NCBI GenBank assembly: GCA_965221835.1
Contig: OZ244916.1
Coordinates: 1,785,643 to 1,849,642, forward strand
DNA: 64,000 bases
Direction of reading: 5' to 3'
From: Gammaproteobacteria bacterium
Lineage (GTDB): Bacteria; Pseudomonadota; Gammaproteobacteria; Tethybacterales; Persebacteraceae
Shown: positions 1 to 37,609 of the stretch, in pieces
Numbering within the stretch: position 1 is the first letter of the stretch
Layout: each line of letters opens with the position of its first letter
Position numbers and translations under genes: made by a program
The notes under the pieces: model-generated
What the model was told of the DNA's origin: nothing
Database searches by the model: none
Seen by the model: the letters and a program-made list of their open reading frames with translations, nothing else

Positions 1-1369
1 TTGCCGCCACATTTTGATAAGTGCGGGCGTCGCCCATCACGCCGACAGTGCGCACCGGCAGCAACACCACAAACGCCTGCGCGGTTGCCGATTCCAAACC
101 GGCGGCGGCGAGTTCGGCGGTAAAAATCGCATCCGCCCGCCGCGCAATCGCAACCCGTGCGGGCGATACTTCGCCCAACACCCGCACCGCCAATCCCGGC
201 CCGGGAAACGGATGACGAAATATCAATTCGTGCGGCAATCCGAGTTCCAAACCGAGTTTGCGTACTTCGTCTTTAAACAATTCGCGCAAAGGTTCCAGCA
301 ATTTTAAATTCAATCGCGCCGGTAATCCGCCGACATTGTGATGCGATTTAATCATCGCTTTGCCGCCTTCCACGCCCGCCGATTCCACGACATCCGGATA
401 AATTGTACCTTGCGCCAAAAAGCGCACATCGTGCAACTTTTTCGCATGCGATTCAAACTCGGCGACAAATAAATTGCCGATGCGGCGGCGTTTTTCTTCC
501 GGGTCGCAAACGCCGCGCAATGCCGCAAAAAATCTATCCGCCGCGTCAATGACCGTCAATTCCGCACCAAATCTCCCGCACAATGCTTCGCGTACCGCCG
601 CGACTTCGCCTTCCCGCATCAGCCCGTTGTCTACTAGTACACAATGCAGACGGTCGCCGATAGCACGCTGCAAAAGTGCCGCCGCAACCGCCGAATCCAC
701 GCCGCCCGACAAGGCGAGAAGTACGCCGCCGCCGTCTGTCCGGCGGCGAATGTCATCCGCGGCGCGTTTAATAAAATTCGGCATCGTCCATTCGCCGCCG
801 CAACCGCAAATGTCGCGGACAAATCGCGCCAACAATTCGCGTCCGTGCGAAGTGTGCGCGACTTCGGGATGAAACTGCACGCCGTATCGCCCGCGTTTTT
901 CGTCCGCCATCGCGGCAACCGGCGACGAATCGGAAGAGGCGGCGGCGACAAATTCGGGCGGTGCGGATAAAACGCGGTCGCCATGACTCATCCACACCCG
1001 CAACTTTTCGGGCAATCCAAAAAAAAGTTTGCCGGGCGAATGCACAACAATATCGGCGGCGCCGTATTCGTGATTTTCGGCTTTTTCTACTTTGCCGCCG
1101 AACGCCGCCGCCATCGCCTGCATTCCGTAGCAAACGCCCAAAACAGGCGCACCGCATTCCCACACCGCTGCGGCAATTTGCGGCGCACCATCCGCCACGG
1201 CGGATTGCGGACCGCCCGACAAAATCACCCCCGCCGGATGCAAAGAATCCAACGCCGCCGCCGCATGCGAATGCGGATGAATTTCGCAATATGCGCCCAG
1301 TTCGCGCACCGCCCGCGCAATCAGTTGCGTAAATTGAGAACCATAATCCAATATCAGAATCGTTTGCAC
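1..1369 (-). CDS. guaA: GMP synthase (glutamine-hydrolysing), N-terminal ~455 codons; C-terminal end lies beyond window start
   Basis: Minus-strand frame translates from GTG at 1369 as VQTILILDYGSQFTQLIARAVRELGAYCEI (GATase N-terminus). PP-loop motif LSGGVDSAVAA is encoded around 680-718. No in-window stop, so it is absent from the ORF track. Confidence 0.88.
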   Translation of the reverse strand, partial: MQTILILDYGSQFTQLIARAVRELGAYCEIHPHSHAAAALDSLHPAGVILSGGPQSAVADGAPQIAAAVWECGAPVLGVCYGMQAMAAAFGGKVEKAENHEYGAADIVVHSPGKLFFGLPEKLRVWMSHGDRVLSAPPEFVAAASSDSSPVAAMADEKRGRYGVQFHPEVAHTSHGRELLARFVRDICGCGGEWTMPNFIKRAADDIRRRTDGGGVLLALSGGVDSAVAAALLQRAIGDRLHCVLVDNGLMREGEVAAVREALCGRFGAELTVIDAADRFFAALRGVCDPEEKRRRIGNLFVAEFESHAKKLHDVRFLAQGTIYPDVVESAGVEGGKAMIKSHHNVGGLPARLNLKLLEPLRELFKDEVRKLGLELGLPHELIFRHPFPGPGLAVRVLGEVSPARVAIARRADAIFTAELAAAGLESATAQAFVVLLPVRTVGVMGDARTYQNVAA

Positions 1370-5228: not shown

Positions 5229-6134
5229 ATGATTTGCACCCCAAACCCCATTATTCGCCCTGAATCGCTGTTGAGATTGTTGCGCATCAACAAAAAACAC
5301 CTGCACGACATTTTGTCCGACAAGGAACGCTTTTATACATCTAAAACGCTAACCAAGTGCGACAAAAAAAGGAATGTTTATATTATCAAGAAGCCGTTGA
5401 AACAAATTCTTGATACCATGAAAGACACTATTTTTCTGAATGTGCAATATCCCGCATATCTTCACGGTTCACTGCCGGGAAAAAGCCCGAAGACGAACGC
5501 TAGCGCGCATTGCGGTGCGGTTTCGGCAGTATTGATGGATATTCAATCCTTTTTCCCCTCTATCACTTGCGAGCATGTATATTATATGTTCCGGCATCGC
5601 TTCCAATTTTCCAAAAAAGTATCCAAAATGCTGGCGGACATTATCACATACGATGGGCGGCTTCCCCAAGGATCGCCCGTGAGTTCCTATATTGCAAATT
5701 TGGCGTTGCGAGGCGAAGGCGAATTATATCGGTCGCTTGTTGCCAAAAATTACTGCTATACGCGATATGTAGATGATATTGCCATTTCTTCGCGTTCTAG
5801 TTTGTCGGAGGTGGAATTGCTTAAAATTAAGAAAGAGGTTCAATGTTTGATTAAACATAACAATCTCCATATCAAACGAAAAAAGACCCAACTGTGCAGA
5901 GCGGGAGCGCGTATCGTAATCACCGGATTAGTTGCAGGATCTAACGGTCCCCGAATTCGCAAAGAATATGTTGCGGATGTGCTGGATGATATAAAAGAAA
6001 TATCAAGCCGCGGATTTCACAATGCCGAAATCCAAAGTATCCAAGGCAAGATTCAATATGTTCGCCAATTTTCCTCCTCCAAAAAAGAAGGAGATTATTT
6101 GGACAGACAATTAAGAATCGCCTTGGAAAATTAG
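5229..6134 (+). CDS. retron-type reverse transcriptase
   Basis: RT motifs DIQSFFPSI, LPQGSPVSSYIANLAL, YVDDIAISS. Retron-specific VTG-like motif (ARIVITGLVAG). 301 aa, typical retron RT size. Confidence 0.85.
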   Translation: MICTPNPIIRPESLLRLLRINKKHLHDILSDKERFYTSKTLTKCDKKRNVYIIKKPLKQILDTMKDTIFLNVQYPAYLHGSLPGKSPKTNASAHCGAVSAVLMDIQSFFPSITCEHVYYMFRHRFQFSKKVSKMLADIITYDGRLPQGSPVSSYIANLALRGEGELYRSLVAKNYCYTRYVDDIAISSRSSLSEVELLKIKKEVQCLIKHNNLHIKRKKTQLCRAGARIVITGLVAGSNGPRIRKEYVADVLDDIKEISSRGFHNAEIQSIQGKIQYVRQFSSSKKEGDYLDRQLRIALEN

Positions 6135-6509: not shown

Positions 6510-7385
6510 ATGTTCCCAGCCGACATCCAAAAAGAGACCTTTTTTACTCTTGGCGATCAAACGCCGAGTCGCTATCAGTTGTTGGAAACGATTACCCGGT
6601 ATGATAAATGGGGGATGATAAAATTTAAGTTCTCCGACATAATTCAGCGTGCGTTTGCAAAGCAAACAGGACTGGATTTGTTCAATGATTGGCACGACTC
6701 CGAAGCGATGTGGCGCAAATTTGATTCTGATGAGGAATGCCAACTGGCGAAAAAATGGATAAACGAACAAGGGGGTAACACTGTGGTCATCCGCAGTTTG
6801 TTGTCGCTGTGTCTCGCCTTGGATTTTCAAATGCGGACCGGCGACGGGAAAATTGCAGGCAGAACGGAAACGGGAGAATTGGTATACCAAGCCAAACCCA
6901 AAAAAGGACAATCCGCATGGCTCGAAGAAAACCGGCGAGCCATCGGCGTGCTGGTCAACCTCCTCTCCGCAAAAATTCAAAATACCGCCGGCTATCAGAG
7001 TGCCGCATATATCGCCGCCGTTCCGTCCTCTCCCGACAAACCGCTGGATTTGCCGACGGAGTTGGCGAAGCGAATTGCGGAAAAAACGAATCTGCACGAC
7101 ATCGGTGCGGGATTTTCGTATGCCAGCGACAAATTAATGCTTAAAGAAGTTTCCGCGGATAAAAAATGGGTGGAGTTGGAAAAATCCGGAATGGCATTTG
7201 ACCGAAATAAAGGCGGCGCAACCAATCGGCAAAAAGGCGTGATTTTGTTGGACGATTTATATCAATCCGGTGCTACAATGCATTATGCCGCAATGCAGAT
7301 GCAGCGGGCGGGGATGTCGCGCATTTTGGGTTTGACGGCGGTGAAGACAATGCGAAACGATGACAATCAGCAACGAGACAATTGA
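6510..7385 (+). CDS. phosphoribosyltransferase (PRTase)-domain protein, ComF-like; putative retron effector component
   Basis: C-terminal type I PRTase PRPP-binding signature VILLDDLYQSGATM. N-terminal ~190 aa of unknown function. Confidence 0.7.
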   Translation: MFPADIQKETFFTLGDQTPSRYQLLETITRYDKWGMIKFKFSDIIQRAFAKQTGLDLFNDWHDSEAMWRKFDSDEECQLAKKWINEQGGNTVVIRSLLSLCLALDFQMRTGDGKIAGRTETGELVYQAKPKKGQSAWLEENRRAIGVLVNLLSAKIQNTAGYQSAAYIAAVPSSPDKPLDLPTELAKRIAEKTNLHDIGAGFSYASDKLMLKEVSADKKWVELEKSGMAFDRNKGGATNRQKGVILLDDLYQSGATMHYAAMQMQRAGMSRILGLTAVKTMRNDDNQQRDN

Positions 7386-8085
7386 AATTCCGCCGGAGCA
7401 TCGGCTGTATCCGGCGCGGGCGGAGGCGTTTTTGCGCGCGCGTCCGGTATTGTCGGCGATGGGCAACACTTCTTTGTTGACCGCCCCTTTTTCGCTGGGA
7501 ATATGCGGGTCGCGCACCGACGAACGCGGCATTGACGCCGCACGCGCGTTCGTGGAGCAACTCGCGCGCGAAATGCCGGAAATTGTCATTGTCTCCGGCA
7601 ATGCGGCGGGAACCGATTTGGCGGCGCATTACACCGCGCTGAAAAACGGTATTGGAACGATTTTTGTATTGCCGGAAGGCGTTTCGCATTTTCGCATCCG
7701 CAAACAACTGCGCGAAGTTTGGAGTTGGGAAAAAGTGTTGGTTGTCAGTCAATTTCCCGCGGACGCATGTTGGGCGGTGGGGCGGGCGATGGCGCGCAAT
7801 CATCTTATTTTGGCGTTGTCGCGCGCGATGCTGGTTTCCGCCGCCGGAAGTGTCGGCGGCACAAAAGCCGCCGCAGACGCCGCCGTCCGCCACAAAGTTC
7901 CGCTGTTCACTGTCGGCTACAAAGAAAGTTCCCCCGTTGGCAATGTGGATTTGCACCGCCGCCGCTATGCGTTGCCGGTCGGGAAAAAACCGGGCACCGA
8001 TCATGCGAATGTGGACAAAATCGTGCAGACGATAATCGCCTCCGGCGGCGCGGATTCGGCGCAAAACTCTTTCGCTTTGCAATAA
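7360..8085 (+). CDS. DprA/Smf-family (Rossmann/SLOG-like) protein, standalone
   Basis: IVIVSGNAAGTDLAAHYTAL and VLVVSQFPADACWAVGRAMARNHLILALSRAMLVSAAGSVGGT match the DprA Rossmann-fold core. Start overlaps the stop of the PRTase gene (translational coupling). Confidence 0.7.
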   Translation: MTISNETIEIPPEHRLYPARAEAFLRARPVLSAMGNTSLLTAPFSLGICGSRTDERGIDAARAFVEQLAREMPEIVIVSGNAAGTDLAAHYTALKNGIGTIFVLPEGVSHFRIRKQLREVWSWEKVLVVSQFPADACWAVGRAMARNHLILALSRAMLVSAAGSVGGTKAAADAAVRHKVPLFTVGYKESSPVGNVDLHRRRYALPVGKKPGTDHANVDKIVQTIIASGGADSAQNSFALQ

Positions 8086-8286
8086 TCGGCGAATAATCGC
8101 GTTGCGATATTCCCGCCCGTTGCAGTCAAAACGCGAGGCGTACAAACAAAGATATTCCGCGTTTTTGTCCTGCTGCAAATACGAAAACAACTGCCCGCCG
8201 TTGCCCTCCATTTTTTAGTTTCGTTGTCGCATTCCGCGCCCCAAGTTTTGCATTCAATATGCGCGAAAACATTTATAATTGCGGCG

Positions 8287-11200
8287 ATGGGAGAGCGACC
8301 GGTTATTTTGGATAATCAACGCGCGGCGGTGGCGGAATATCTGCGCGCGTGTTTGGAGGGCGCGGATTTGTTTCGCATCGTTTCGGCGTATTTTTCGGTT
8401 TTCGGATATGAAACGTTGGCGGAAAAACTGGAATCCGCGTCCGCGCCGAAAGTGCGTTTTTTGTTCGGCGCGCCCGATTCGGCGGACGATGCCGAATCGG
8501 GCGACAAAACGCAGCGCGTTTTTGCGTTGACCGAATCGGGTTTGTCGGCGAACGAAATGTTGCATCAGCGCGAACTCGCCGAACGATGCGCGGCGTGGAT
8601 TCAAAAAAGTACGGAAGTACGAAAAATTTCGCGACAAAATTTTTTGCACGGCAAAATGTATCATCTGGAATCGAACGCGGACGGCGCGGCGGTGGTCGGC
8701 AGTTCCAACTTTACGCGGCGCGGGATGGGAATGTCGCGAAATCCGAACATAGAAATTAATCTTGCAACGACGAACGCAGAAGATCTCGCCGCGCTGGCGG
8801 AATGGTTTGACGAAGTTTGGGAAGACGAAAAATTAACGGAAGATGCCAAACCGGATCTTCTCGCTGCATTGAAAAGATGGACGGCGGAATACGCACCCGA
8901 ATTTTTATATTACAAAGTTTTGTACGAATTGTTCCGCAACGAAATTCGTGCGCGCGAACAGGAGGGCGACGAATCCGCCGAACGGCTGGACGGTACCGAA
9001 ATATGGAAGACGCTGTACGAATTCCAAAAAGACGGCGCGAGAACCGTCGTCGGGCGGTTGTTGCGGCACGGCGGTTGCATTCTCGCCGACAGCGTGGGAC
9101 TCGGCAAAACTTACACCGCGTTGGCGGCGATAAAATATTTTGAAATGCGCAACAAAAACGTGCTGGTACTTTGTCCGAAAAAACTGGAACAAAACTGGCG
9201 TCTTTATCAGGCGAGTGCCGCCGTTCCGCGCAATCCGTTTGTCGCCGACAAATTCGGTTATCATCTTTTGTCGCACACCGATCTGGGACGCGAAAAAGGG
9301 AAAGTCGGCAACATTGATTTGTCTAAGTTTGATTGGGGCGTTTACGATCTTGTCGTCATTGACGAATCGCACAACTTTCGTAACGATTCTAAAAGTCGCA
9401 GCAACGAAAGCGGCGAAATCGTCCGCCGCAGCCGCTACGAAACATTGCTGGAAGATGTCATAAAAACGGGCGAAAAAACCAAAGTTCTGATGTTGTCGGC
9501 GACGCCGGTTAACAATTCGTTAACCGATTTGCGAAACCAAATTTATTTAATGACCGGCGGGCGCGAAGATGTTTTTGCCGATTCGCTGGGCGTGCGTCAT
9601 ATCAAAACGGTCGTTCGTGCGGCGCAAAGACAATTTCACGAATGGGAAAAACATTCGCACGAAAAGCGGGACAAAGGCGAACTGCTGGCGTCTTTGGGGG
9701 ATGATTTTTTGAATCTACTCGCAGGTGTTACTATCGCCCGTTCGCGGCGGCAGATTAAAAATTTTTACGCCGATTTTATCGCCCGGCATGGCGATTTTCC
9801 GAAGCGCGAAAAACCGCAAAACGAACATCCGCACGCCGATTCGCGCGGCGAGTTTTCGTACGATGAATTGCACGACGATCTTCTGGCATTGAATTTTCAC
9901 ATTTATCGTCCGTCCGATTATGTTGTCGGGGCGGGTGCGCGGGCGCGTTTGGACGAAGAGAAAAAGACGCGCAACTTTAATCAAAAAGATCGCGAAAAGT
10001 TTTTGGTCGCGATGATGCGCGTTAATTTTCTTAAACGATTGGAAAGTTCCGCGCATGCTTGCAAACTCACGCTGGAGCGAACGCTTGCAAAAACGGATGC
10101 GCAAATCGAAAAAATAAATAATTTTTTGCAGCGGCGGGAGGAGGAATCGCAAACAGAACTCCCCGGCGATTCTCCGCGCGAAGCGGAAGGCGAATCGGAG
10201 AACGAATATGCGGAAGACGAAGATTTTGTCGTCAACCGCCGGGCGATGACGCCGTATCGATTATCCGAATTGGATGTGGAAAAATGGCGCGCGGATATGG
10301 CAGAAGACCGGCGCGCTTTGCGGGCGGCGTTGGACAAAGTACAGAAAATTACGCCGGAACGGGACGGCAAAATCGCGCTGCTAAAAAAACAAATCGCCGA
10401 AAAAGCAAAACGCAAAAACCGCAAACTTCTCGTCTTTACCGCCTTTAAAGATACCGCAGAATATCTGTACAATCAACTGCGTAAATGCGCCGAAGAATCG
10501 GGAATAAAAATTGCGTTCGTCGCCGGAGATGAAACCTCTGCCGGCGGCGGGCGAAATGCCTTTCCGGATATTCTCAATCGCTTTTCGCCCCGCGCACGAG
10601 GCGGCGAACCGGGCGCTGATGAAATTGATTTATTAATCGCAACCGATTGCATTTCCGAAGGGCAAAATTTGCAAGATTGCGACACGGTACTAAACTACGA
10701 CATTCATTGGAATCCGGTGCGTTTGATTCAACGTTTCGGGCGCGTAGATCGCATCGGCAGTACGAACAAATCGGTGCGGATGATTAATTATTGGCCGACC
10801 GAAGATATGGATTTTTATCTTAAATTGGAAAACCGCGTACGCGCGCGGATGGCGTTGGCGGATATTGCCGGCACCGGCGACGATGATGCGCTGAACGAAA
10901 AAGAAATGGAAAAATCCGCGCAACAGGAACTGCATTTTCGCAACGAACAACTAAAACAAATGCGCGAGAAAATTAGCGATATGGAGGAAATGGACGATTC
11001 CGTTACGATGTCCGATTTGACATTGGATTATTTCATCACGCAACTTCTCCGTTATCTGCAAAAAAACAAAGACGATCTGGAAGCCGCACCGCCGGGAATT
11101 TATGCGGTCGCGAACGCCGCAGACGGAGAGGCGAAAACCGCACCGCACGACAACGGCGCGATATTTCTTTTTCGCCGCACGAACGCCGCCGAAGACGACC

Positions 11201-11595
11201 GGACGGGTTTTTATCTCGTGCATTGCGAAAACGGAAAAGTGCGCGCGGGGCATCTGAAAGTTCGCGAAACTTTGCGCATTTTTGAATCGCTGGCGAAAGA
11301 CAAAAACAAACCGCTGAAAAAGTTGTGCGACATTTTTTCGCGCGAATTGAAAAGCGAAAACGGCGCGCGCTTTTACGACAAAATGGCAAACGCCGCCGTG
11401 TGCGACATCGGCGACACCGCCGACCGCCGTGCGGGCGAATCGTTGCGGCGCGATGCCGGACGCGGCGGAATGTTGCCGAAAGTTTGCGAACGCCCCGCCG
11501 TCAACAATTTGGAACTCGTTGCGTGGCTGGTCGTCAAAAAAGATGAAATCGGCGCGACAGAGTTGCGCGCGCAACGAACCGCCGCCGATGGTTGA
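8287..11595 (+). CDS. PLD-like nuclease domain fused to SNF2-family helicase
   Basis: N-terminal HKD-like motif HGKMYHLESNADGAAVVGSSNFT. SNF2 motifs DSVGLGKT, DESHNFRN, LMLSATPVNNS, and C-terminal helicase LLIATDCISEGQNLQ...RFGRVDRIGS. ORF track start 8224 is TTG; the first ATG is 8287. Confidence 0.85.
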   Translation: MGERPVILDNQRAAVAEYLRACLEGADLFRIVSAYFSVFGYETLAEKLESASAPKVRFLFGAPDSADDAESGDKTQRVFALTESGLSANEMLHQRELAERCAAWIQKSTEVRKISRQNFLHGKMYHLESNADGAAVVGSSNFTRRGMGMSRNPNIEINLATTNAEDLAALAEWFDEVWEDEKLTEDAKPDLLAALKRWTAEYAPEFLYYKVLYELFRNEIRAREQEGDESAERLDGTEIWKTLYEFQKDGARTVVGRLLRHGGCILADSVGLGKTYTALAAIKYFEMRNKNVLVLCPKKLEQNWRLYQASAAVPRNPFVADKFGYHLLSHTDLGREKGKVGNIDLSKFDWGVYDLVVIDESHNFRNDSKSRSNESGEIVRRSRYETLLEDVIKTGEKTKVLMLSATPVNNSLTDLRNQIYLMTGGREDVFADSLGVRHIKTVVRAAQRQFHEWEKHSHEKRDKGELLASLGDDFLNLLAGVTIARSRRQIKNFYADFIARHGDFPKREKPQNEHPHADSRGEFSYDELHDDLLALNFHIYRPSDYVVGAGARARLDEEKKTRNFNQKDREKFLVAMMRVNFLKRLESSAHACKLTLERTLAKTDAQIEKINNFLQRREEESQTELPGDSPREAEGESENEYAEDEDFVVNRRAMTPYRLSELDVEKWRADMAEDRRALRAALDKVQKITPERDGKIALLKKQIAEKAKRKNRKLLVFTAFKDTAEYLYNQLRKCAEESGIKIAFVAGDETSAGGGRNAFPDILNRFSPRARGGEPGADEIDLLIATDCISEGQNLQDCDTVLNYDIHWNPVRLIQRFGRVDRIGSTNKSVRMINYWPTEDMDFYLKLENRVRARMALADIAGTGDDDALNEKEMEKSAQQELHFRNEQLKQMREKISDMEEMDDSVTMSDLTLDYFITQLLRYLQKNKDDLEAAPPGIYAVANAADGEAKTAPHDNGAIFLFRRTNAAEDDRTGFYLVHCENGKVRAGHLKVRETLRIFESLAKDKNKPLKKLCDIFSRELKSENGARFYDKMANAAVCDIGDTADRRAGESLRRDAGRGGMLPKVCERPAVNNLELVAWLVVKKDEIGATELRAQRTAADG

Positions 11596-11605: not shown

Positions 11606-14600
11606 ATGGAAAAAACGATGAACGACAATTTGCTGCATAAAACTAAAAACGCCCTCGCCGAATGCATTCGTCCCGCCGAAAACTTCGCCGCCGCGGCGGA
11701 AAACTTACTAAACGCACTCGGCTACGAAAGCGACCGCAAACATGTCGGCGGCAATGATTCGGTACGCGATTTCGTTCGCGATTTTCCCGCGCCGCAAGCG
11801 GAAACAAAAACCGAATCGGAATTCGTCCGCGCCGCAAAATCCGCGCGCATCATCTTTCAATATACCGGAGAAGAAATTAGCAAATCGCAAAACATGTTCG
11901 GCGCGACATTTAACGAGGGCGACATTGAAAGTTTTTTGTTTGTCGCCGTAGAGTTAAAATCCGGCGATTATGCGCGCGGCAAATACGCCGAATTCGCGCG
12001 CGAAATCAACAAGCGATTTGGAATGCCGACGGTCGTTTTGTTTCGCACGGCGGACGGCGCAGATAAATTGTCGCTCGCGTTTGTCGGACGGCGCGCACAC
12101 AAAACCGATTCCGCCCGCGATGTTTTGGAAAAAGTTTCGCTGCTGCGCAATATCAATTGCAACAAACCGCACCGCGGACATTTGGATATTCTTTTGCAAC
12201 TGTCTTTGCAAAATCGGCTGGAATGGATGTCGCGCAACAGCAAGGAAAAAAACTTCGCCGGACTTCTCGCCGCATGGCTGGACGAACTCAACACGGACGC
12301 GTTAAATAAACGTTTTTATGGCGAACTGCTTTCGTGGTTTGAACGCGCAAATCAAAAAATCTGTTTTCCGGCGAACTTGCAAAACAAGCGCGAAGATTGG
12401 ACGATTCGCCTGATTACGCGCCTGCTTTTTGTCTGGTTCGTCAAAGAAAAAAATCTTGTCGCCGAAGATTTGTTTTACAAATCGCAAATTTGCCCGCTGT
12501 TAAAAAATGGTGCGAATCCAACCAACGATTCGTACTATCGCGTTGTTTTGCAAAATCTCTTTTTTGCGACTCTCAATACGCCGATAAAAGATCGCAAATT
12601 CAGCGAAGGCGGACGCGATGCGCATCGCGATTTTTCGCGGTGGCGATATGCCGCCGAAATCGCAAACGACAAATGCAAAGAAAAACTAAAACAACTCTTC
12701 GCGCAAACGCCGTTCATCAACGGCGGACTCTTTGATTGTTTGGACGGCTACGACAGCCCGGCGAGTGCGAAAAACGCCGGACGCGAAGGCGGCGAAGAAC
12801 GGACAGATTATTTTTCGGAATCGTATTACAAAGATTCGCGCATAAAAGACAAGTTGTCGGTTCCCGATTCTTTGTTTTTTGCCGAAAACGGATTGCTTTC
12901 TATTTTCCAAAAATATAAATTTACGGTGGAAGAAAATACGCCGATAGAACAAGAAGTGGCGTTGGATCCGGAACTGCTGGGGCGCGTCTTTGAAAACCTT
13001 CTCGCTTTTTACAATCCGGAAACGCGCGAAAATGCGCGCAAACAAACCGGTTCTTTTTATACCCCGCGCGAAGTTGTAGATTATATGACGCGCGAATCGG
13101 TGGCGGAATGTTTGGCGGCGAAAACCGGTGCGGACGGCGATAAAACGCGCGCGCTTTTGGATTATGCTGCACCTGCTGATCATTCGTTTTCGGCGGCGGA
13201 AGTTAAATCTTTAGTACGTGCAATTTCCGAAATTAAAATTTTTGATCCCGCCGCCGGATCGGGGGCGTTTCCGATGGGCGTTTTGCATCTTCTTACGCTC
13301 GCGCTTTCGCGTTTGGATTCGCAAAATGCGGAATGGCACGAACTGCAAAAAAATCGCGCGCAAAAAGATGCGGCGGAAACCTTTCATCGCGCCGACAAAT
13401 CCGAACGCGGCGAACGGCTGGATGAAATTAACGAAGTTTTTTCGCGCTATTCCGATTCCGATTTCGGGCGCAAATTGTTTCTCATACAAAACAGCATTTT
13501 CGGTGCGGACATTCAGCCGGTCGCATGTCAAATTTCCAAACTGCGATTTTTTATTTCGCTGGCGATAGAACAAAAGCGGGATGCGAACGCGGAAAACTTC
13601 GGCATAAAACCGCTGCCGAATTTGGAAACGCGATTCATCGCCGCCGATTCGCTGATTAAAATCGGCGGCAGGGGACAAGGCGCACTAAAATCGGAAGCGG
13701 CGGCGAAGTTGGAACGCGACCTCGCGGCGAATCGCGAACGGCATTTTAATGCGACCGCCCGCAAAACAAAATTGCACTGCAAAAACAAAGATGAAGAATT
13801 GCGCAAAAAACTTGCGGCAGAGTTGAAAAAAACCAGCGGATTTGATAACGAAGACGCCGGACGCATCGCTGTTTGGAATCCGTACGACCAAAACGCCGCC
13901 GCGAAATGGTTTGATGCGGAATATATGTTCGGCGTCGCCGACGGCTTCGACATCGTCATCGGCAATCCGCCGTATGTGCAATTGCAAAGAGACGGCGGAC
14001 GATTGGCAAATTTATACGCGCCGCAAAACTACGAAAGTTTCGCGCGCACGGGCGATTTGTATATGTTGTTTTACGAACGCGGATTGCAACTTTGCGCGTC
14101 CGGCGGCGGGCTGATGTTTATCACTTCCAACAGTTGGTTGCGCGCAAACTATGGCGCAAATTTGCGCGGCGTTCTCGCCCGCCATAATCCGCGTTTGCTG
14201 ATTAATATGGGCGCGAATGTTTTTGAAAATGTATCTGTTAGCGTGAACATTTTGGGCGTTCAAAATGCACCGAACCGTAATGAATTGTTGGCGAATGATT
14301 TTGTTCGCACGGGCGATTTTCCGCCGTCCGAATGGCATTCCATTGCGCCGAAAAATAAAGACGGATGGGCGATTGTATCCGCGTCTGAAAACACTTTGCG
14401 CGCGAAAATTGAACAGGCGGGAACACCAATTAAGAATTGGAATGTTCGCATGTTTTTCGGTATTAAAACCGGTTATGACAAAGCGTTTTTGATTGATGCG
14501 GCGACCAAACACCGTTTGTGCGCGGAAGATCCGGGCAGTGCGGAAATTATCAAACCGACGATTCGCGGGCGGAATATTGGTAGATACTTTTACGAATCTG

Positions 14601-15193
14601 CTGACGAGTATGTTATCGCTACATTTCCTTCCAAAAATTTGTCTATTGAAAATTTTCCGGCGGTGAAAAAATATTTGCAATCTTTCGGCGACCGTTTAGA
14701 GCAAAGCGGGCGTCCGGGTTGCCGCAAGAAAAGCGCGCATGCGTGGTTTGAAACACAGGACGCAGTCGCGTATTATCCGGAATTTGAAAAAGAAAAATTG
14801 ATTTGGACAGACATCGCCCAAGCCGGACGGTTTTTCTATGACACCGAAAAACTGTACCCGATGGCAAGCGGGTTTGTAATGACCGGAGAAGATATTCAAT
14901 ATCTTCTCGCCGTTCTTAACTCGCGCTTGATCACTTGGTATATGCCAAATGTCGCCGTGAATCTTGGCGATAGCGGGCTTCGATGGAAAAAGATATATGT
15001 GGAAAAACTCCCAATCCCGCAAATTCCCAAAGCGGAACAACGCCCGTTCATAGAGTTGGCACAAAAAATCACCGCCGCCAAAGCAGCAAACCCCGCCGCC
15101 GACACCCACGAATGGGAATCCGAAATAGACCACCGCGTCTACAAACTCTACAACCTAACCAAAAAAGAAATCGCCATAATAGAGGCGGAATGA
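11606..15193 (+). CDS. MmeI/Eco57I-family type IIG-like N6-adenine DNA methyltransferase with N-terminal PD-ExK nuclease-like domain and C-terminal TRD (1195 aa)
   Basis: N-terminal D-x10-ELK (GDIESFLFVAVELK). Motif X FYTPREVVDYM. Motif I DPAAGSGAF. Motif IV IGNPPYVQ. Long C-terminal region. Confidence 0.85.
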   Translation: MEKTMNDNLLHKTKNALAECIRPAENFAAAAENLLNALGYESDRKHVGGNDSVRDFVRDFPAPQAETKTESEFVRAAKSARIIFQYTGEEISKSQNMFGATFNEGDIESFLFVAVELKSGDYARGKYAEFAREINKRFGMPTVVLFRTADGADKLSLAFVGRRAHKTDSARDVLEKVSLLRNINCNKPHRGHLDILLQLSLQNRLEWMSRNSKEKNFAGLLAAWLDELNTDALNKRFYGELLSWFERANQKICFPANLQNKREDWTIRLITRLLFVWFVKEKNLVAEDLFYKSQICPLLKNGANPTNDSYYRVVLQNLFFATLNTPIKDRKFSEGGRDAHRDFSRWRYAAEIANDKCKEKLKQLFAQTPFINGGLFDCLDGYDSPASAKNAGREGGEERTDYFSESYYKDSRIKDKLSVPDSLFFAENGLLSIFQKYKFTVEENTPIEQEVALDPELLGRVFENLLAFYNPETRENARKQTGSFYTPREVVDYMTRESVAECLAAKTGADGDKTRALLDYAAPADHSFSAAEVKSLVRAISEIKIFDPAAGSGAFPMGVLHLLTLALSRLDSQNAEWHELQKNRAQKDAAETFHRADKSERGERLDEINEVFSRYSDSDFGRKLFLIQNSIFGADIQPVACQISKLRFFISLAIEQKRDANAENFGIKPLPNLETRFIAADSLIKIGGRGQGALKSEAAAKLERDLAANRERHFNATARKTKLHCKNKDEELRKKLAAELKKTSGFDNEDAGRIAVWNPYDQNAAAKWFDAEYMFGVADGFDIVIGNPPYVQLQRDGGRLANLYAPQNYESFARTGDLYMLFYERGLQLCASGGGLMFITSNSWLRANYGANLRGVLARHNPRLLINMGANVFENVSVSVNILGVQNAPNRNELLANDFVRTGDFPPSEWHSIAPKNKDGWAIVSASENTLRAKIEQAGTPIKNWNVRMFFGIKTGYDKAFLIDAATKHRLCAEDPGSAEIIKPTIRGRNIGRYFYESADEYVIATFPSKNLSIENFPAVKKYLQSFGDRLEQSGRPGCRKKSAHAWFETQDAVAYYPEFEKEKLIWTDIAQAGRFFYDTEKLYPMASGFVMTGEDIQYLLAVLNSRLITWYMPNVAVNLGDSGLRWKKIYVEKLPIPQIPKAEQRPFIELAQKITAAKAANPAADTHEWESEIDHRVYKLYNLTKKEIAIIEAE

Positions 15194-15196
15194 CCG
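15155..15196. repeat. direct repeat A (3' end of the MTase gene); second copy at 16248-16287
   Basis: ctaaccaaaaaagaaatcgccataatagaggcggaatgacc vs ctaaccaaagagggaatcgccataatagaggcggaatgacc (38/41 identical). Confidence 0.75.
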
Positions 15197-15388
15197 CATC
15201 CAAACCGAACGCGGCGCGGTGATAAAACTGAAAAAACGGGAAGAAATTCGTTCCGCATTTTCGCTGTTATTTGAGCAATCATGCGGGACTTATCAAAATC
15301 GCTATGCAGGAAAGTGTAGATGCGTGGGACTCTGGTGGAATGGCAAATTGATGTATAATTGCGCCGCAACCATTGCAGGAGGTAAAAA

Positions 15389-15715
15389 ATGAAAATATCC
15401 ATCGCCAAAGATTTTTCGGATGTGCCTATCGGGCGTGCCCGGTCGGACGGCGACTATACCGGCGAGGCGTTTCGGGAGGATTGGCTCGTTCCGAAACTGC
15501 GGAAGGCATCGGCGAACGATCCCTTAATCATCAATTTGGACGGCGCCGAGGGGTATCCTTCGTCGTTCCTGGAAGAGGCATTCGGAGGGCTGGTGCGAAA
15601 CGGATACACCGCCGCCGATCTGCACAAACTCTTGAAAATAGAGGCGGGTAGCGGCTATAAAACCTACCGGGATATCATCTGGGATTACATCAAAGCGGCG
15701 GATTCTCTCGATTAA
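15389..15715 (+). CDS. DUF4325 (STAS-like) small protein
   Basis: Strong RBS AGGAGG. Sequence pattern DFSDVPIGRARSDGDYTGEAFRE...LDGAEGYPSSFLEEAFGGLVR matches the DUF4325 family. Confidence 0.6.
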   Translation: MKISIAKDFSDVPIGRARSDGDYTGEAFREDWLVPKLRKASANDPLIINLDGAEGYPSSFLEEAFGGLVRNGYTAADLHKLLKIEAGSGYKTYRDIIWDYIKAADSLD

Positions 15716-16155
15716 TGATGTCGCCTCACATTGTCCAGGCGGTTGTGCTGGTTCTGTGCGTTATCATTACTTTTGTTTTTAACGCGATATTGCAGCATCG
15801 GCTTTTGCATCGGCAAGGCAGGGAAAAAATTATTGATGCTTTGCTGCAATTGGTGGAAGAACAAAAGCAGTTTTACGCCGCCTATTGGGAAAAAGACGCC
15901 GCCGATGGCGCAGTGTCCGCATCCATAAACGAGACGATGCAGCAAACCCGATTTGATGCGCTGTTGGAGTTTGCCGGACGGAAATACAAATTCCGCAATA
16001 TAAACGACATTAATCGTCAGTACAGGAAATTCTGCAAAACGGCAACCGGCGACAACTTTGGCGAAAAAAACAGGGCGGCGAATACCGAAAAAGCGCGGCA
16101 TATTCATGCCATTGCGAACCAAATATACATCATTCTTTTGGAAAACAAAGTGTAG
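15715..16155 (+). CDS. hypothetical membrane protein (1 N-terminal TM helix), translationally coupled to the DUF4325 gene
   Basis: TAATG overlap with upstream gene. N-terminal hydrophobic segment AVVLVLCVIITFVFNAIL. Confidence 0.5.
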   Translation: MMSPHIVQAVVLVLCVIITFVFNAILQHRLLHRQGREKIIDALLQLVEEQKQFYAAYWEKDAADGAVSASINETMQQTRFDALLEFAGRKYKFRNINDINRQYRKFCKTATGDNFGEKNRAANTEKARHIHAIANQIYIILLENKV

Positions 16156-16169
16156 GGACGCAGTGCCGC

Positions 16170-16234
16170 AAAACTCCGTTTTATATCCCGTTTCCGCGCC
16201 GTTTAATTCGGGGCGGTTGCCGGTTTCGGGGTTG
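16170..16234. repeat. direct repeat P' : duplicated 5' end of pip (copy of 17422-17486)
   Basis: aaaactccgttttatatcccgtttccgcgccgtttaattcggggcggtt..cggtttcggggttg is identical apart from 2 nt to the pip start region. It encodes SVLYPVSAPFNSGRL in an out-of-context position. Confidence 0.8.
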
Positions 16235-16247
16235 TATTTTCTACAAT

Positions 16248-16287
16248 CTAACCAAAGAGGGAATCGCCATAATAGAGGCGGAATGAC
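16248..16287. repeat. direct repeat A' (second copy of the MTase 3' end)
   Basis: See 15155-15196. Confidence 0.75.
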
Positions 16288-16321
16288 CAACAACAAAATC
16301 ACCAGCGAAGCGTTTGCTGCG

Positions 16322-16861
16322 TTATTCCCCGCTACCGAGATGTTCCTTGTAGCGTCTTATGAAATCAAGAAATTCCGGCAGAAATTCCTTTTTTTGCTTC
16401 TCATAATCGGCGTCAGAATCGGACGCCGGTTTTGCCACTTTTTCTTTCGCGTCATTCCTGCCGGGACCCCGGAACACCTCGCGCAATAATATGCCGTACA
16501 GCACGATAAAACTAAGGAACGCGCCCGAAACCAGCAACGCTTGCGCCACAGGATGAATCATTTTGATAATATCGGCTGGTTGCATAAAAACGATAAAAAC
16601 GAATGGGAATATCACCCAAGGCGCGATTAGCGTAATGACGATGCTGAAAAACCGAAACCAATAATATTGACGGGCGACAATTTGATTGTGTTCGGTAGTT
16701 GCCTTGTCTCGCTCCTCGGAGTTCTGATTGCGCGCCTCTTCGCGCTCAAAAAACTTCAACATTTTGCCCAGCATCTTCATTTCTTCCTGCCGACGCTCGG
16801 CGTCGTTGAGCATTCCGGCGGACTCGCTGCCAAGTTCGTGATGATTTTTTTCGCCGATCAC
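16322..16861 (-). CDS. membrane protein (2-3 TM), candidate toxin partner of the Panacea-domain gene
   Basis: Hydrophobic core FRFFSIVITLIAPWVIFPFVFIVFMQP...LVSGAFLSFIVLYGILL. ATGA overlap with the upstream Panacea gene. Confidence 0.5.
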   Translation of the reverse strand: MIGEKNHHELGSESAGMLNDAERRQEEMKMLGKMLKFFEREEARNQNSEERDKATTEHNQIVARQYYWFRFFSIVITLIAPWVIFPFVFIVFMQPADIIKMIHPVAQALLVSGAFLSFIVLYGILLREVFRGPGRNDAKEKVAKPASDSDADYEKQKKEFLPEFLDFIRRYKEHLGSGE

Positions 16862-17346
16862 GACAGATCCTTAATCAATTTTTCGTAGTATTCCTTGATG
16901 ATTTCGTTAGGAATCGTGCCGAAATATTGATCTTTGCACTGATCCCACGGCGTGCCTTCGCGGTGTGTTAAATCCGAAAGCGAGAATGCGCCCAAACGCG
17001 AATACCGTTCGTAAACTTTGCTTACGATGTCCGCTTCATCTTCGTTGAGTTTGGTCGTATAGTCCGGAAACTCGCCGAATTCCGGGTCGTACGGACGCGC
17101 CTTGTTTTTGATGACAAACTGCGGCGCGAACGCGCGATATACTTCTGGAATGACCGGTCCGAATTTCCACGCTTGCACCTGATGGCGAATCAGCGGCTTG
17201 CCGGTGTAGCCGAGAGTCCAGCCGTGCGCCAGATATACATATTTTACCAGCGGCATAATCGTCAGCCGCTTTTTCGCGGCGCGCGCTTTGTCGACAAAAA
17301 TGTTCGCAATCGCACGCGAATCATGTCCCTTTTTTCCGAATAGCAT
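16858..17346 (-). CDS. Panacea-domain (DUF4065, SocA-like) antitoxin-family protein
   Basis: LTIMPLVKYVYLAHGWTLGYTGKPLIRHQVQAWKFGPVIPEVY resembles the DUF4065/Panacea N-terminal core. Confidence 0.55.
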   Translation of the reverse strand: MLFGKKGHDSRAIANIFVDKARAAKKRLTIMPLVKYVYLAHGWTLGYTGKPLIRHQVQAWKFGPVIPEVYRAFAPQFVIKNKARPYDPEFGEFPDYTTKLNEDEADIVSKVYERYSRLGAFSLSDLTHREGTPWDQCKDQYFGTIPNEIIKEYYEKLIKDLS

Positions 17347-17414
17347 TGTTATTTCACCTTTCTGTATAATTATTCAGATTTTATCATATTTTCGCCCGCC
17401 GTTATAATCGGCGA

Positions 17415-18374
17415 ATGTCTGAAAACTCCGTTTTATATCCCGTTTCCGCGCCGTTTAATTCGGGGCGGTTGGCGGTTTCGGGGTTGCATTCGGTGGCGTT
17501 TGCGGAGTATGGAAATTCGCGGGGGATTCCGGTTGTTTATTTGCATGGCGGACCGGGCGGCGGCTCTTCGCCTTCGCAGGCGGCGTTTTTTTGTCCGCAA
17601 AAGTTTCGCGTTTTGTTGTTTGATCAGCGGGGTTGCGGCAGGTCTTTGCCGCATGCGGAGTTGCGCGAAAACACGACTTGGGATTTGGTTGCAGATATGG
17701 AAAAGTTGCGTGCGCATCTCGGCATTAAAAAATGGTTGGTGTGCGGCGGGTCGTGGGGAAGTGCGTTGGCGTTGGCGTATTCGCAAAAACATCCCGCCCG
17801 TTGTTTGGGAATGATTTTGCGCGGCATTTTTACTTTGCGGCGGGCGGAGTTGTTGTGGTTTTATCAAGAGGGTGCGAGTTGGATTTTTCCGGAGTTGTGG
17901 GCGGATTTTATCGCACCGATTCCGCCTGCCGAACGCGGCGATTTGCTTTCGGCGTATCATCGCCGATTGACTGGAAAAAACCGGGCGGAAATGAATCGGT
18001 GTGCGATTGCGTGGAGCAAATGGGAGGCGGCGACATTGTCGTTTGCGCGAAATGAAAAACGCGTTCGCGAATTTTCCGCGCCGCTTTTTGCGAAGGCGTT
18101 TGCGCGAATTGAATCGCATTATTTTGTTCACGGCGGATTTTTTGCGCGGGATGGACAACTGATTGCGGATGCGCAAAAACTTGCGGGCGTGCCGGGCGTT
18201 ATCATACAAGGGCGATACGATATTATTACGCCGACAAAAACCGCGTTTGATTTGCATCGCAACTGGCCGGGGTCGCGTTTGGAAATCGTTCCCGATGCCG
18301 GACACGCCGCCGACGAACCGGGAATCGCCGCCGCAATTCGCAAAGCCGCAGACGCGTTTGCGGAGAAATTTTAA
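17415..18374 (+). CDS. pip: proline iminopeptidase (S33)
   Basis: GIPVVYLHGGPGGG, GGSWGSALALAY nucleophile elbow, 319 aa. Confidence 0.9.
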   Translation: MSENSVLYPVSAPFNSGRLAVSGLHSVAFAEYGNSRGIPVVYLHGGPGGGSSPSQAAFFCPQKFRVLLFDQRGCGRSLPHAELRENTTWDLVADMEKLRAHLGIKKWLVCGGSWGSALALAYSQKHPARCLGMILRGIFTLRRAELLWFYQEGASWIFPELWADFIAPIPPAERGDLLSAYHRRLTGKNRAEMNRCAIAWSKWEAATLSFARNEKRVREFSAPLFAKAFARIESHYFVHGGFFARDGQLIADAQKLAGVPGVIIQGRYDIITPTKTAFDLHRNWPGSRLEIVPDAGHAADEPGIAAAIRKAADAFAEKF

Positions 18375-18414
18375 TTTGTTTGCGAAGTGCGAAATTTTTG
18401 CGCTTTGCGTTAAA

Positions 18415-18603
18415 GTTCGTTTTACGGCGCGAGAAAAAAATGTCTTCCATTTCCGTGAACGTTCGTTTTTCAGTGTGAGAAAAAATGTCTTCCATTTCCG
18501 TGAACGTTCGTTTTTACGGTGCGAGAAAAAATGTCTTCCATTTCCGCGAATGTTCGTTTTTACGATGCAAGAAAAAAATGTCTTCCATTTCCGTGAACGC
18601 GAG
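18415..18603. repeat. tandem repeat, ~46-bp unit x ~3.7 (gagaaaaaatgtcttccatttccgtgaacgttcgtttttacggtgc), containing the GAACGTTC palindrome
   Basis: Direct visual alignment of units at 18431, 18477, 18523 and 18570. Confidence 0.8.
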
Positions 18604-18741
18604 AATGAAAAAGGCGGCGGAGAGTTTGGGCGGAATTATTTTTTTCATCCGTTGCGGTTGTAAAAAAACTTCGTTCGGCGGGGAACAATGTAAAATGCAC
18701 GGTGAAACTTTTATTATTAAAATATGAAGGAGGAAACGGCG

Positions 18742-21780: not shown

Positions 21781-21836
21781 CCCGCCATTTTACCGCATTT
21801 CCCGCCGAATGCAAATTCAATTTGTCCGGCGATTTG

Positions 21837-22139
21837 TTAAAAATTAATTCGCCCGATTTCAAACGCGTCCGATTCTGCAATGTCCAACTGATATTTCGGA
21901 TTGCGCGGCGAACCATCGGCATTTCGTCCCTGCGAAAACATGCCGAGCGTTTTGCTGTTTGCGGCGGTAATTGTTAAAAATAAAATTTGCCGCAGAGTCG
22001 CGCGTGTTTTGCGATAGCGCGAAGTCGCGTTGCGCTCAATTCTATTGCGTTCGTATTTGGACAGTCCGCCTTTTAATTCGGAATGCCACTTTTGGAAAGT
22101 CCGATTTTCGTCGTTGTAGTCCACATCCAAAAGCGCCAT
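21837..22139 (-). CDS. hypothetical protein (100 aa); 3' end duplicated at 22296-22358
   Basis: ORF only. The 62-bp copy of its 3' end (gttaaaaattaattcgcccgatttcaaacgcgtccgattctgcaatgtccaactgatattt) recurs 460 bp away. Confidence 0.3.
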   Translation of the reverse strand: MALLDVDYNDENRTFQKWHSELKGGLSKYERNRIERNATSRYRKTRATLRQILFLTITAANSKTLGMFSQGRNADGSPRNPKYQLDIAESDAFEIGRINF

Positions 22140-22284: not shown

Positions 22285-22473
22285 GTTTTTGTCCGGCGTT
22301 TCGTTAAAAATTAATTCGCCCGATTTCAAACGCGTCCGATTCTGCAATGTCCAACTGATATTTTCGCCCCGTTATTCCCGCGAATGCGAGAATTTAAATT
22401 GTTGGCGTAAATCGGAATTTTGGGATTTTTCGCTTGTGCGGGGAATGACAAATTTGCCGCCTGTTTTGCGAAT

Positions 22474-25926: not shown

Positions 25927-26066
25927 GTTCACGGGAATGGAAGATTTTTTCATGATTTTTCCATGTCGCTTTTGTTCACGGGAATGGAAGATTTTTTCAT
26001 GATTTTTTCATGTCGCTTTCGTTCACGGGAATGGAATGTTTTTTCCATGTCGCTTTTCATTTACGG
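25927..26066. repeat. tandem repeat ~47-bp unit x3 (gttcacgggaatggaagattttttcatgatttttccatgtcgctttt), inverted relative to the array at 18415-18603
   Basis: Units at 25927, 25974 and 26021. The core gttcacggRaatggaaga is the reverse complement of the tcttccatttccgtgaac core at 18.4 kb. Confidence 0.75.
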
Positions 26067-35558: not shown

Positions 35559-36041
35559 ATGAACGACAATGATAAGAAATTACTTGCAAATAAGAAATTG
35601 TTTGATGCAATTAAGAAAGGCAAGGAAATAGCCCGAGACGATACCAAAAACAAATTGGATGAATTGAATAAAGAAATCAAGGATCTGATTACTAAAGAAA
35701 ACGCGAGTCCGAATGCGAAAATGGATGACGGTTGGACGGTTTTGATGGAGGCGGCAAATGTCGGAAATCTCGAAATTGCCCAAACTCTGATAAATGCAGG
35801 GGCGAATCCGAATGCGGCGAAGGGCTATGGCTGGACGGCTTTGATGGAGGCGGCATATTACGGACATATGACAATTGTCTCTCTTCTGCTGGAAAAAGTG
35901 GTAAATCGGAATGCGGCATTAAATGCGAATTGGACTGCTTTGGATGCCGCAAATCTGGCGTGGCAAAATGCGAAAACTCCGGAAGAGGCGAAAAAGTTTC
36001 AGACAATTGTGGATATGTTTCAAGGGAAAAAGACGGGATAA
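35559..36041 (+). CDS. ankyrin-repeat protein (no signal peptide)
   Basis: Repeats GWTVLMEAANVGNLEIAQTLINAGANPNA / GYGWTALMEAAYYGH. AAGGAG RBS. Confidence 0.8.
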   Translation: MNDNDKKLLANKKLFDAIKKGKEIARDDTKNKLDELNKEIKDLITKENASPNAKMDDGWTVLMEAANVGNLEIAQTLINAGANPNAAKGYGWTALMEAAYYGHMTIVSLLLEKVVNRNAALNANWTALDAANLAWQNAKTPEEAKKFQTIVDMFQGKKTG

Positions 36042-36044
36042 CAA

Positions 36045-36078
36045 AACCGGCGGGGATTCAATGTCCCCGCTTTTTTTG
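36045..36078 (+). terminator. rho-independent terminator (family hairpin CCGGCGGGGATTCAATGTCCCCGC + T7)
   Basis: GC stem followed by T-run immediately after the ank stop codon. Confidence 0.7.
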
Positions 36079-36111
36079 TATTTCTTTACAAAACCAAAAG
36101 GAAAAATCATT

Positions 36112-36438: not shown

Positions 36439-36441
36439 GCC

Positions 36442-37551: not shown

Positions 37552-37588
37552 CGGCGAGGATTCCATTTCCCCGCCGTTTTTTTTTACA
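37552..37588 (+). terminator. rho-independent terminator (family hairpin)
   Basis: acggcgaggattccatttccccgccg + T9. Confidence 0.7.
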
Positions 37589-37609
37589 AAACTAAAATGA
37601 AAAATCATT

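Follow-up and report, generated by a model that had tools for sequence, protein, structure and literature searches.

We analysed a window of 64,000 nucleotides (nt) from a Gammaproteobacteria bacterium of the family Persebacteraceae (contig OZ244916.1, positions 1,785,643 to 1,849,642, assembly GCA_965221835.1), in which two small gene cassettes, here called X and Y, lie in series between a DNA methyltransferase (MTase) gene and the gene pip, separated by a scar made of fragments of both flanking genes. Comparison with related strains makes it likely that this slot is a recombinase-free cassette hotspot in which out-of-register illegitimate or microhomology recombination stacked alternative cassettes, and in which homologous recombination and deletion then remodelled the stacks. 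The anatomy of the locus, its series of alleles in related strains, two types of junction and a set of deletion derivatives are all directly seen in the DNA. The features of the window on which the argument is built are as follows (aa, amino acids; L163 is one of the related loci described below):

11606..15193, + strand: gene for an Eco57I-family DNA methyltransferase with a TaqI_C specificity domain (Pfam Eco57I 2.6e-32, TaqI_C 7.6e-13)
15147..15195, + strand: repeat A, the MTase 3' end; identical in all 13 alleles up to nt 42-49
15276..15358, + strand: two remnants of a gene W (blastn to W of L163: 837-885, 94%, and 1095-1134, 97.5%)
15389..16155, + strand: cassette X, a DUF4325 (STAS-like) gene (15389-15715) and a gene for a 146-aa protein with an N-terminal hydrophobic segment (15715-16155)
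16170..16238, + strand: P', a copy of pip nt +8..+76 (ATG = +1) without the pip start codon and promoter
16239..16239, + strand: T, the junction nucleotide of junction J1; the layout P(69)+T+A is constant in every J1 scar of every strain
16240..16288, + strand: A', a diverged copy of the MTase tail, its right edge contiguous with cassette Y
16322..17346, - strand: cassette Y, a Panacea-domain antitoxin gene (16858-17346) and a gene for a 179-aa hydrophobic putative toxin (16322-16861)
17381..17408, + strand: pip promoter-like site TTATCA-16-TATAAT, a consensus match only
17415-18374, + strand: pip, gene call confirmed
17422..17490, + strand: repeat P, pip nt +8..+76 (ATG = +1) within the functional pip gene

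Anatomy of the composite scar

The two pairs of repeats reported in the first-pass annotation proved to be real and slightly longer than described. Repeat A and its copy A' (15147-15195 vs 16240-16288) align over 49 nt with 45/49 positions identical (92%), and repeat P and its copy P' (17422-17490 vs 16170-16238) align over 69 nt with 67/69 identical (97%). Neither A nor P is low-complexity sequence, and a scan of the window for the P pattern with <=3 mismatches returned 2 matches where 0.00 were expected from 100 shuffles. They are coding gene ends, and the same scar recurs in independent contigs from other strains. Specifically, repeat A consists of the final 15 codons of the MTase gene, its stop codon and 2 nt, and repeat P runs from the second base of pip codon 3 to the first base of codon 26 (nt +76). 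The homology of A to A' stops 2 nt past the MTase stop codon, that of P' to P starts 7 nt inside pip, and cassettes X and Y diverge at these ends. With the single T at 16239 between them, P' and A' form one fused scar of ~119 bp.

Each half of this scar is contiguous with the neighbour that would be expected of it, X-P' on the left, where cassette X runs into the left edge of P', and A'-Y on the right. The two halves of the scar thus show that X formerly lay directly in front of pip and Y directly behind an MTase tail. In such an X-type allele an in-frame GTG at 16163, upstream of P', would have served as the pip start. The four differences between A' and A fall at positions 8-43 of 49 and, translated in the MTase frame, include a synonymous change (AAC>AAT), K>E and E>G. 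Since they read as coding changes in the MTase frame, A' appears to derive from a different MTase allele, and it looks like the tail of a diverged gene and not like a decayed copy. A search for attC-like or other folds in the scar gave nothing notable (z -0.7 to -1.9).

Alleles and junctions in related strains

We obtained 12 distinct related loci by exact-protein look-ups in the ENA metagenome assemblies ERZ25072152, ERZ25070530 and ERZ25072479 (L171 is the same contig as L167), so that with the window there are 13 alleles. The strains range in coverage from 2x to 630x in the source samples. The flanks of the window are 97-99% identical to those of the related contigs and identical to none of them, which makes the window an independent sighting of the locus, and an exact-protein look-up of the window's own DUF4325 and pip proteins found no identical record. 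Searches anchored on pip gave no close relative in GTDB species-representative genomes (best identity 68%) or in JGI metagenomes (64%), and the pip of sister species (P0122, P0123) is 78-83% identical. The alleles are listed below, with the flank fragments that separate cassettes in brackets:

L001 (464x): A-Y-P
window and L166 (133x): A-X-[P'A']-Y-P
L162: A-X-[PA]-Y-[PA]-Z-P
L168: A-X-[PA]-Y-[P144]-Z-P
L167 (257x, circular 2.0 Mb) and L169: A-X-[PA]-Y2-[P146]-Z2-P
L163: A-W-X-[PA]-Y2-[P144]-Z-P
L170: A-Y2-[P144]-Z-P
L173: A-Y2-[P146]-Z2-P
L164 (630x) and L172: A-W(1-50)/Panacea-[PA]-Z-P
L165: A-W(1-50)/Panacea-[P144]-Z'-P

The order W, X, Y, Z is invariant across the alleles, and the largest stacks hold three or four cassettes. 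X is missing from L170 and L173, and Z is missing from the window, L166 and L001. The first-pass annotation had proposed that two alternative occupants of one hotspot were joined by recombination in the short conserved flanks. The stacking of alternative occupants is supported by the A-Y-P allele of L001 and by the alleles that lack X or Z, and homologous recombination in the flanks as the joining step is not, because the J1 join is illegitimate.

The gene calls confirmed the content of both cassettes of the window as first annotated, a DUF4325 protein with a hydrophobic-segment protein in X and a Panacea protein with a hydrophobic protein in Y. The DUF4325 match of X (Pfam 8.4e-11) is accompanied by 98-99% identity of the whole cassette in L162, L163 and L166-L169. 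Gene W is intact only in L163, as a 377-aa open reading frame (ORF) with a weak HATPase_c_2 match under the curated cut-off, and its remnants in the A-X spacer of the window indicate that the window's cassette X is a decayed W-X cassette. In cassette Y the Panacea gene (Pfam SocA_Panacea 2.4e-20) overlaps the co-oriented downstream 179-aa gene by 4 nt, which is the PanA/PanT layout of a Panacea antitoxin adjoining a co-oriented toxin gene, and L001 encodes exactly the same Panacea protein as the window. The Y2 alleles carry a Panacea gene 86-97% identical to that of Y with unrelated partners, genes of 172/173 aa. This swap of partners fits the partner promiscuity of Panacea described in PMC8832971. 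PADLOC returned no matches for the X and Y proteins; cassette Z matches its candidate system HEC-01, with an ABC-type ATPase (1e-105 to 1e-137) and a DUF4276 protein.

The MTase gene that forms the left flank is itself variable. Its specificity region, at approximately 13975-15030, is hypervariable, with <=92% identity to any relative and often unalignable, vs ~98% for the rest of the gene; the protein ranges from 1164 to 1210 aa among strains, and the gene is split in L170 and L172. This pattern suggests that the target-recognition domains of the MTase are often swapped, with the conserved tail, including repeat A, probably serving as the right-hand homology arm.

These alleles contain two or more independent types of junction, all of one topology, in which the 5' end of pip is joined to the 3' end of the MTase gene. 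In J1, the type in the window, pip +76 is joined to MTase stop -47. Besides the window, at least 7 contigs of strains that differ by 1-3% carry it, and it lies between X and Y, between X and Y2 and, in L162, L164 and L172, between Y and Z, with identical boundaries everywhere. Where J1 precedes Y2 or Z, its A part ends at nt 42 and is followed by GGGATTGATTACGCCGCC, which is exactly the '...IIEAGD*' variant of the MTase tail found where Y2 directly follows the MTase (L170, L173). Since the same boundaries occur between different cassette pairs, the distribution of J1 fits a single origin followed by spread through homologous recombination.

The second type, J2, lies between Y and Z in L163, L165, L168 and L170 and contains no A fragment. 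Its repeat consists of the 37 nt upstream of pip together with pip nt 1-107, 144 bp in all, and runs straight into Z. The crossover falls inside a 10-nt microhomology, GCGGGGGATT, common to pip +98..107 and the 'IIEAGD*' MTase tail of L170 and L173: the parents are ...TTCGCGGGGGATTCCGG... in pip and ...GAGGCGGGGGATTGATTAC... in the MTase tail, and the junction is ...TTCGCGGGGGATTGATTAC.... A related form, J2' (L167, L169, L173), extends 2-3 nt deeper into pip than J2 before passing into different sequence (Z2). Judged from these boundaries there were at least two independent joins, and probably three. As the 5' end of pip is joined in each case to an MTase tail or to the left end of a cassette, the junctions indicate unequal exchange between copies of the locus, which is the topology of a tandem duplication.

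The scars have been reshuffled since they formed. Their copies are mosaics of A and A' variants, which indicates homologous recombination. Specifically, between X and Y the diverged A' variant is carried by the window, L163, L166 and L168, and by L169 on the shorter tail form, whereas in L162 and L167 the copy equals the resident A, and an intermediate variant is present between Y and Z in L162 and L164. The identity of the A' copy with A in L162 indicates conversion or unequal crossover. The inner pip fragment between Y and Z bears a diagnostic substitution, GGAGT, in six strains (five with J2/J2' and the J1 scar of L162), and its common possession is consistent with a single ancestral event. 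Unequal crossover within the 69-bp P can shift a J1 scar from between X and Y to between Y and Z, which would explain the identical boundaries. We had also considered J1 between Y and Z (L162, L164) as a third independent event; this was rejected, the boundaries being the same as between X and Y and unequal crossover within P being sufficient.

Deletion has shortened some of the stacks. In L164, L165 and L172 a 2-nt microhomology joins the first 50 nt of W to the Panacea stop codon (L164 6430-6540), and from this fusion it follows that these short alleles descend from a longer stack. The deletion took out the remainder of W together with X, the J1 scar and the putative toxin gene, leaving an orphan Panacea antitoxin. 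The carriers include the most abundant strain, L164. Retention of Panacea with loss of its partner gene in the most abundant strains (L164, L172) lends indirect support to the view that the partner would be toxic and neutralised by Panacea. Because the short alleles are in part deletion products, the present pattern of presence and absence does not give the direction of change. Thus, today's pattern would be a mixture of rare stacking events and frequent loss.

How the stacks may have formed

In the mechanism that we propose, the strains of a population of closely related, probably host-associated gammaproteobacteria would once have held different cassettes in the slot between the MTase stop and the pip start, namely W-X (DUF4325), Y/Y2 (Panacea pairs) or Z/Z2 (HEC-01-like ATPase and DUF4276). 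In rare cases two copies of the locus would have recombined out of register, an illegitimate join linking the start of pip in one of them to the MTase tail in the other, so that two cassettes came to stand in series with a scar composed of a pip-start fragment and then an MTase-tail fragment. This stacking would have occurred at least twice, as J1 in the window and as J2 in the relatives, in GCGGGGGATT. The join may have been homology-anchored with an illegitimate end, similar to homology-facilitated illegitimate recombination (HFIR), or may have been an unequal interchromatid exchange. Most likely the exchange involved two different alleles, the DNA of a co-resident strain having entered the cell. 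An inter-allelic event is favoured because the differences of A' span nearly the whole 49 nt, placing a diverged MTase tail beside Y. Afterwards, homologous recombination between copies of A and P, together with illegitimate deletions, would have converted scars, shifted junctions to other cassette pairs and removed cassettes, and the scars themselves would be passive relics. The inter-allelic origin, the uptake of DNA and the order of events are what we infer from the junctions.

The 37 nt upstream of pip contain the pip promoter-like site, and in other strains the J2 junctions duplicate them along with pip 1-107. A probable reason why stacks stay functional is that each duplication brings along the upstream region of the neighbouring cassette, the 144-bp repeat including the pip promoter-like site. 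Apart from this site, a promoter and terminator scan of the locus gave only terminator-like matches within ~2 standard deviations of the shuffle mean, which were not used.

Several points weigh against this mechanism. The single-cassette allele A-Y-P that the first-pass annotation predicted was found in L001, and its counterparts A-X-P and empty A-P, as well as A-Z-P, are not among the 13 alleles, so that X and Z as alternative alleles are deduced from the scars and not observed. The invariant order W, X, Y, Z is also what one ancient array with loss only would give, and stacking may be very rare. No clear microhomology is seen at J1. Natural competence is unproven: the window does have a DprA gene, at 7360-8085, which is a widespread gene, and uptake motifs are not enriched, with 0/11 variants of the Neisseria and Pasteurellaceae types of DNA uptake sequence (DUS) and uptake signal sequence (USS) present in the window, so that the transformation suggested in the first-pass annotation gains no support from such motifs. 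All of the relatives come from metagenome assemblies. Finally, the same topology could have arisen within one strain, by a tandem duplication from MTase stop -47 to pip +76 that gave A-C-[PA]-C-P (C being any one cassette), after which homologous recombination through the flanks exchanged one copy for a different cassette. The topology of the junctions matches a tandem duplication exactly, bacteria commonly acquire such duplications at microhomologies, and frequent swaps in the upstream MTase, with its variable specificity region, could account for the differences between A and A'. Transformation is moreover known to stimulate tandem duplications (PMC3784515). However, no allele with two identical cassettes is among the 13, for Y to come in later with A' as its left arm the crossover would have to fall within the first 7 nt, unless it was the resident A that gave way, and two rare steps are needed in place of one. 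We regard intrachromosomal duplication followed by allelic replacement as possible but less likely.

Other routes fare less well. A linear A'-Y-P fragment might have been circularised at a P-A joint and integrated by a single crossover in P or A, in the manner of Campbell, with small non-autonomous circles as the products of the reverse reaction. Integration of an A'-Y-P circle through P yields exactly A-X-P'-A'-Y-P, direct repeats of 49-144 bp would permit excision and reintegration, and Furuta et al. have hypothesised a cycle of invasion, amplification and release for restriction-modification (R-M) units with long direct repeats (PMC2853133). The circles themselves are without evidence, however, and the identical J1 boundaries call for identical linear ends on every occasion or else for one origin, and one origin makes the circle step unnecessary; the microhomology of J2 is explained equally well by direct unequal exchange. 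We consider this route rather improbable. The first-pass annotation had also raised a site-specific system that duplicates its target, in which the P-A scar would be an attachment or recombination site of the integron, Xer or integrase kind, and a recombinase whose gene lies elsewhere would insert cassettes and duplicate gene ends. The constancy of the J1 boundaries between different cassette pairs would agree with this, as would the superficially integron-like ordered array. But the scar is unstructured, with no attC-like fold, and consists of coding sequence from two different genes and not of one repeated attachment core; the boundaries of J2 and J2' differ from those of J1, and J2 lies in a 10-nt microhomology of the kind typical of illegitimate recombination. 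There is likewise no integrase, transposase or other recombinase gene among the scanned ORFs of the window or the genes called within +/-9 kb of any of the 12 related loci, and Pfam and PADLOC scans of all cassette genes gave no mobility domain. Transfer RNA and Rfam scans of the window were without matches, so a tRNA-type integration target is absent as well. A site-specific system is thus disfavoured, and we hold it to be highly improbable.

Least probable of all, to the point of being nearly negligible, is an assembly artefact in which a metagenome assembler joined co-existing A-X-P and A-Y-P alleles head to tail. Many closely related strains do coexist in the source samples, over the wide range of coverage given above. 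A mis-join is expected inside common sequence, though, and would not create the novel joint of P +76 with A -47; the same junction is present in the window as well as in the other J1 contigs, related junction types occur in three separate assemblies, and the scar copies bear substitutions of their own.

The island, known systems and wider meaning

The left-hand conserved context of the hotspot is formed by the partner gene of the MTase, which is ~98% identical across all related loci and which PADLOC matched as 'HKD+Snf2' (7.8e-112):

8224..11595, + strand: HKD/PLD-nuclease and SNF2 helicase gene, MTase partner (Pfam PLDc_2, SNF2-rel_dom, Helicase_C)

A reverse-transcriptase gene (RVT_1, 5229-6134) and the DprA gene lie upstream of this helicase. 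In L166, L167 and L169 (1-1815) a type IIG-like R-M gene encoding 1144-1265 aa (N6_Mtase+Eco57I+Methylase_S) lies immediately upstream of it, and this gene is missing in the window and L168, a further presence/absence polymorphism of the same island. Just downstream of pip there is a 46-nt tandem repeat in ~4 copies (18392-18604), and a related 47-nt pair in opposite orientation is found at 25927-26020; in the relatives such regions were called as ORFs of 53-126 aa, and their copy number is probably variable among strains.

The first-pass annotation had suggested looking for the same flank-duplication signature at other loci, and gene-end repeats were indeed found at two more places in the window. 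A perfect direct repeat of 57 nt (43709-43765 and 46077-46133) corresponds to nt -4..+53 of a nuoM-like gene (46081-47565) and brackets an N6_N4_Mtase+RAMA gene (43808-45187) and a gene for a 297-aa protein of unknown type (45191-46084). The interval 43709-46133 looks like a textbook insertion of an R-M unit with long target duplication. The first ~105 aa of the 43808-45187 MTase ORF are an in-frame N-terminal fragment of a DEAD helicase, possibly a relic of an earlier occupant. Between serC and parB, a 76-nt repeat (97%; 21821-21896 and 22288-22363) corresponds to the 3' end of a 100-aa ORF or of a pentapeptide-repeat gene; among related strains it occurs in one or two copies, and a 445-aa pentapeptide gene is present or absent. 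On the evidence of these nuoM-like and serC-parB repeats, the process that duplicates gene ends does not seem peculiar to the MTase-pip slot.

Some other features of the window touch on its gene content and host. At 47307-49242, between nuoM and a second Proton_antipo_M gene (49239-50696, probably nuoN), one ORF carries an NPPW methyltransferase motif and another (48538-49242) is weakly Tsp45I-like, a putative R-M pair inside the nuo operon, and no flanking direct repeat was found around this pair. The region 35600-43400 holds a cluster of genes built of 99-nt (33-aa) ankyrin-type repeats, of which those at 36081, 39973 and 41320 have near-identical 5' ends and signal-peptide-like N-termini; such a cluster is typical of host-associated bacteria, for example sponge symbionts. 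The nearest named relatives of pip are from uncultured Gammaproteobacteria, Ca. Zeuxoniibacter and Ca. Persebacteraceae, which suggest that the window may come from a host-associated gammaproteobacterial lineage. A 21-nt tandem repeat of ~10 units and repeats of 117-120 nt (55973-56182 and 57210-57530) lie in or near a 737-aa ORF at 55892-58105.

Among named phenomena, the closest to the MTase-pip slot is the insertion with long target duplication of R-M genes (Nobusato et al. 2000, Gene 259:99; Furuta et al. 2010, PMC2853133). Such units lack genes for mobility, and the direct repeats on either side of them exceed 30 bp and often take in a start or stop codon. They are known mainly from competent species; their mechanism is unknown, with DNA breakage or illegitimate recombination suspected (PMC2853133). 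The present locus resembles them: direct repeats of >30 bp enclose a unit devoid of mobility genes and exist as one copy where that unit is missing, the repeats span a start or stop codon, the target gene is intact and repeat length is variable (49, 69 and 144-146 bp). Measured against the definition of Furuta et al. 2010, A and A' (49 bp) bracket X and P', and L001 has one A and neither X nor P'; in the relatives the repeats of 144-146 bp bracket Z or Z2, and a single copy without Z is present in the window, L001 and L166. The inserts are 1.1-2.0 kb, well within the <20 kb of that definition, and contain no transposase, integrase or phage genes. The definition also calls for R and M homologues in the insert, and here the R-M-like genes belong to the fixed left flank, the inserts being toxin-antitoxin or candidate defence cassettes and not R-M genes. 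The locus differs further in that the insert holds a fragment of the opposite flank (P' inside A...A'), which indicates that the insert is the other allele of the same locus and not of unknown external source, and in that one junction is resolved to a 10-nt microhomology and the events are nested and iterated, with up to four cassettes.

Minimal mobile elements, as Saunders and Snyder reportedly described them in 2002, carry no mobility genes themselves, and their movement is attributed to transformation with homologous recombination in the flanking DNA. In Neisseria, unrelated small clusters, often R-M, occupy a syntenic site between conserved neighbours (Saunders & Snyder 2002, cited in PMC1797815). 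In the same way the present slot has alternative, unrelated cassettes (Y; X+Y; X+Y+Z; W+X+Y2+Z; Y2+Z), without mobility genes, between conserved flanks that are ~98% identical. That concept is one of replacement, however, whereas here the alternatives are stacked serially with duplicated flank fragments between them. In Streptococcus pneumoniae, transformation triggers tandem duplication by unequal crossing-over, giving merodiploids marked by one new joint (Johnston et al. 2013, PMC3784515). The present locus likewise records unequal exchange between two copies of a region with one novel junction, but the pneumococcal duplications are of 100-900 kb, lie between long repeats derived from insertion sequences and are unstable, in contrast to units of 1-2 kb with illegitimate or microhomology joints and differing cassettes that are stably inherited across strains. 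Integron arrays and tandem integrase-borne islands resemble the locus in their serial small promoter-proximal cassettes, recurring short separators and presence or absence among strains. Unlike in an integron, there is no IntI gene, attI, attC or folded site in the called genes of the 12 loci or the scanned ORFs of the window, and the separators are fragments of flanking housekeeping and R-M genes with variable boundaries. What is new here relative to known hotspot dynamics is the opposite-flank fragment inside the insert and stacking instead of replacement. A literature search for stacked hotspot alleles with composite flank scars in defence islands found nothing specific; its coverage was incomplete, and it is weak evidence of novelty.

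If stacking was inter-allelic, further alleles should exist: an A-Z-P allele whose MTase ends in IIEAGD* followed by GATTACGCCGCCTTCC, a donor of A' with an MTase tail of ...FYNLTKEGIAIIEAE*, and an A-(W)X-P allele whose pip starts at the GTG equivalent to 16163. As a tentative and rather speculative extension, the composite scar may reflect a general mechanism, out-of-register microhomology recombination, both for insertion with long target duplication and for the growth of defence islands without mobile elements, the cassettes carrying both flanks in the manner of an 'integron without an integrase'. If this is true, each cassette would carry portable flanks, A on the left and P on the right, and could be lost, excised or transferred to naive strains by homologous recombination alone.

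The build-up of defence and toxin-antitoxin islands is usually ascribed to mobile elements in hotspots, and this locus records in its own sequence a route that requires no recombinase. It also gives the long target duplications around R-M genes, whose mechanism has been open since 2000, a concrete candidate origin. Finally, the series of alleles inside single metagenomes points to rapid structural turnover of defence content among the co-existing strains of a symbiont-like population.

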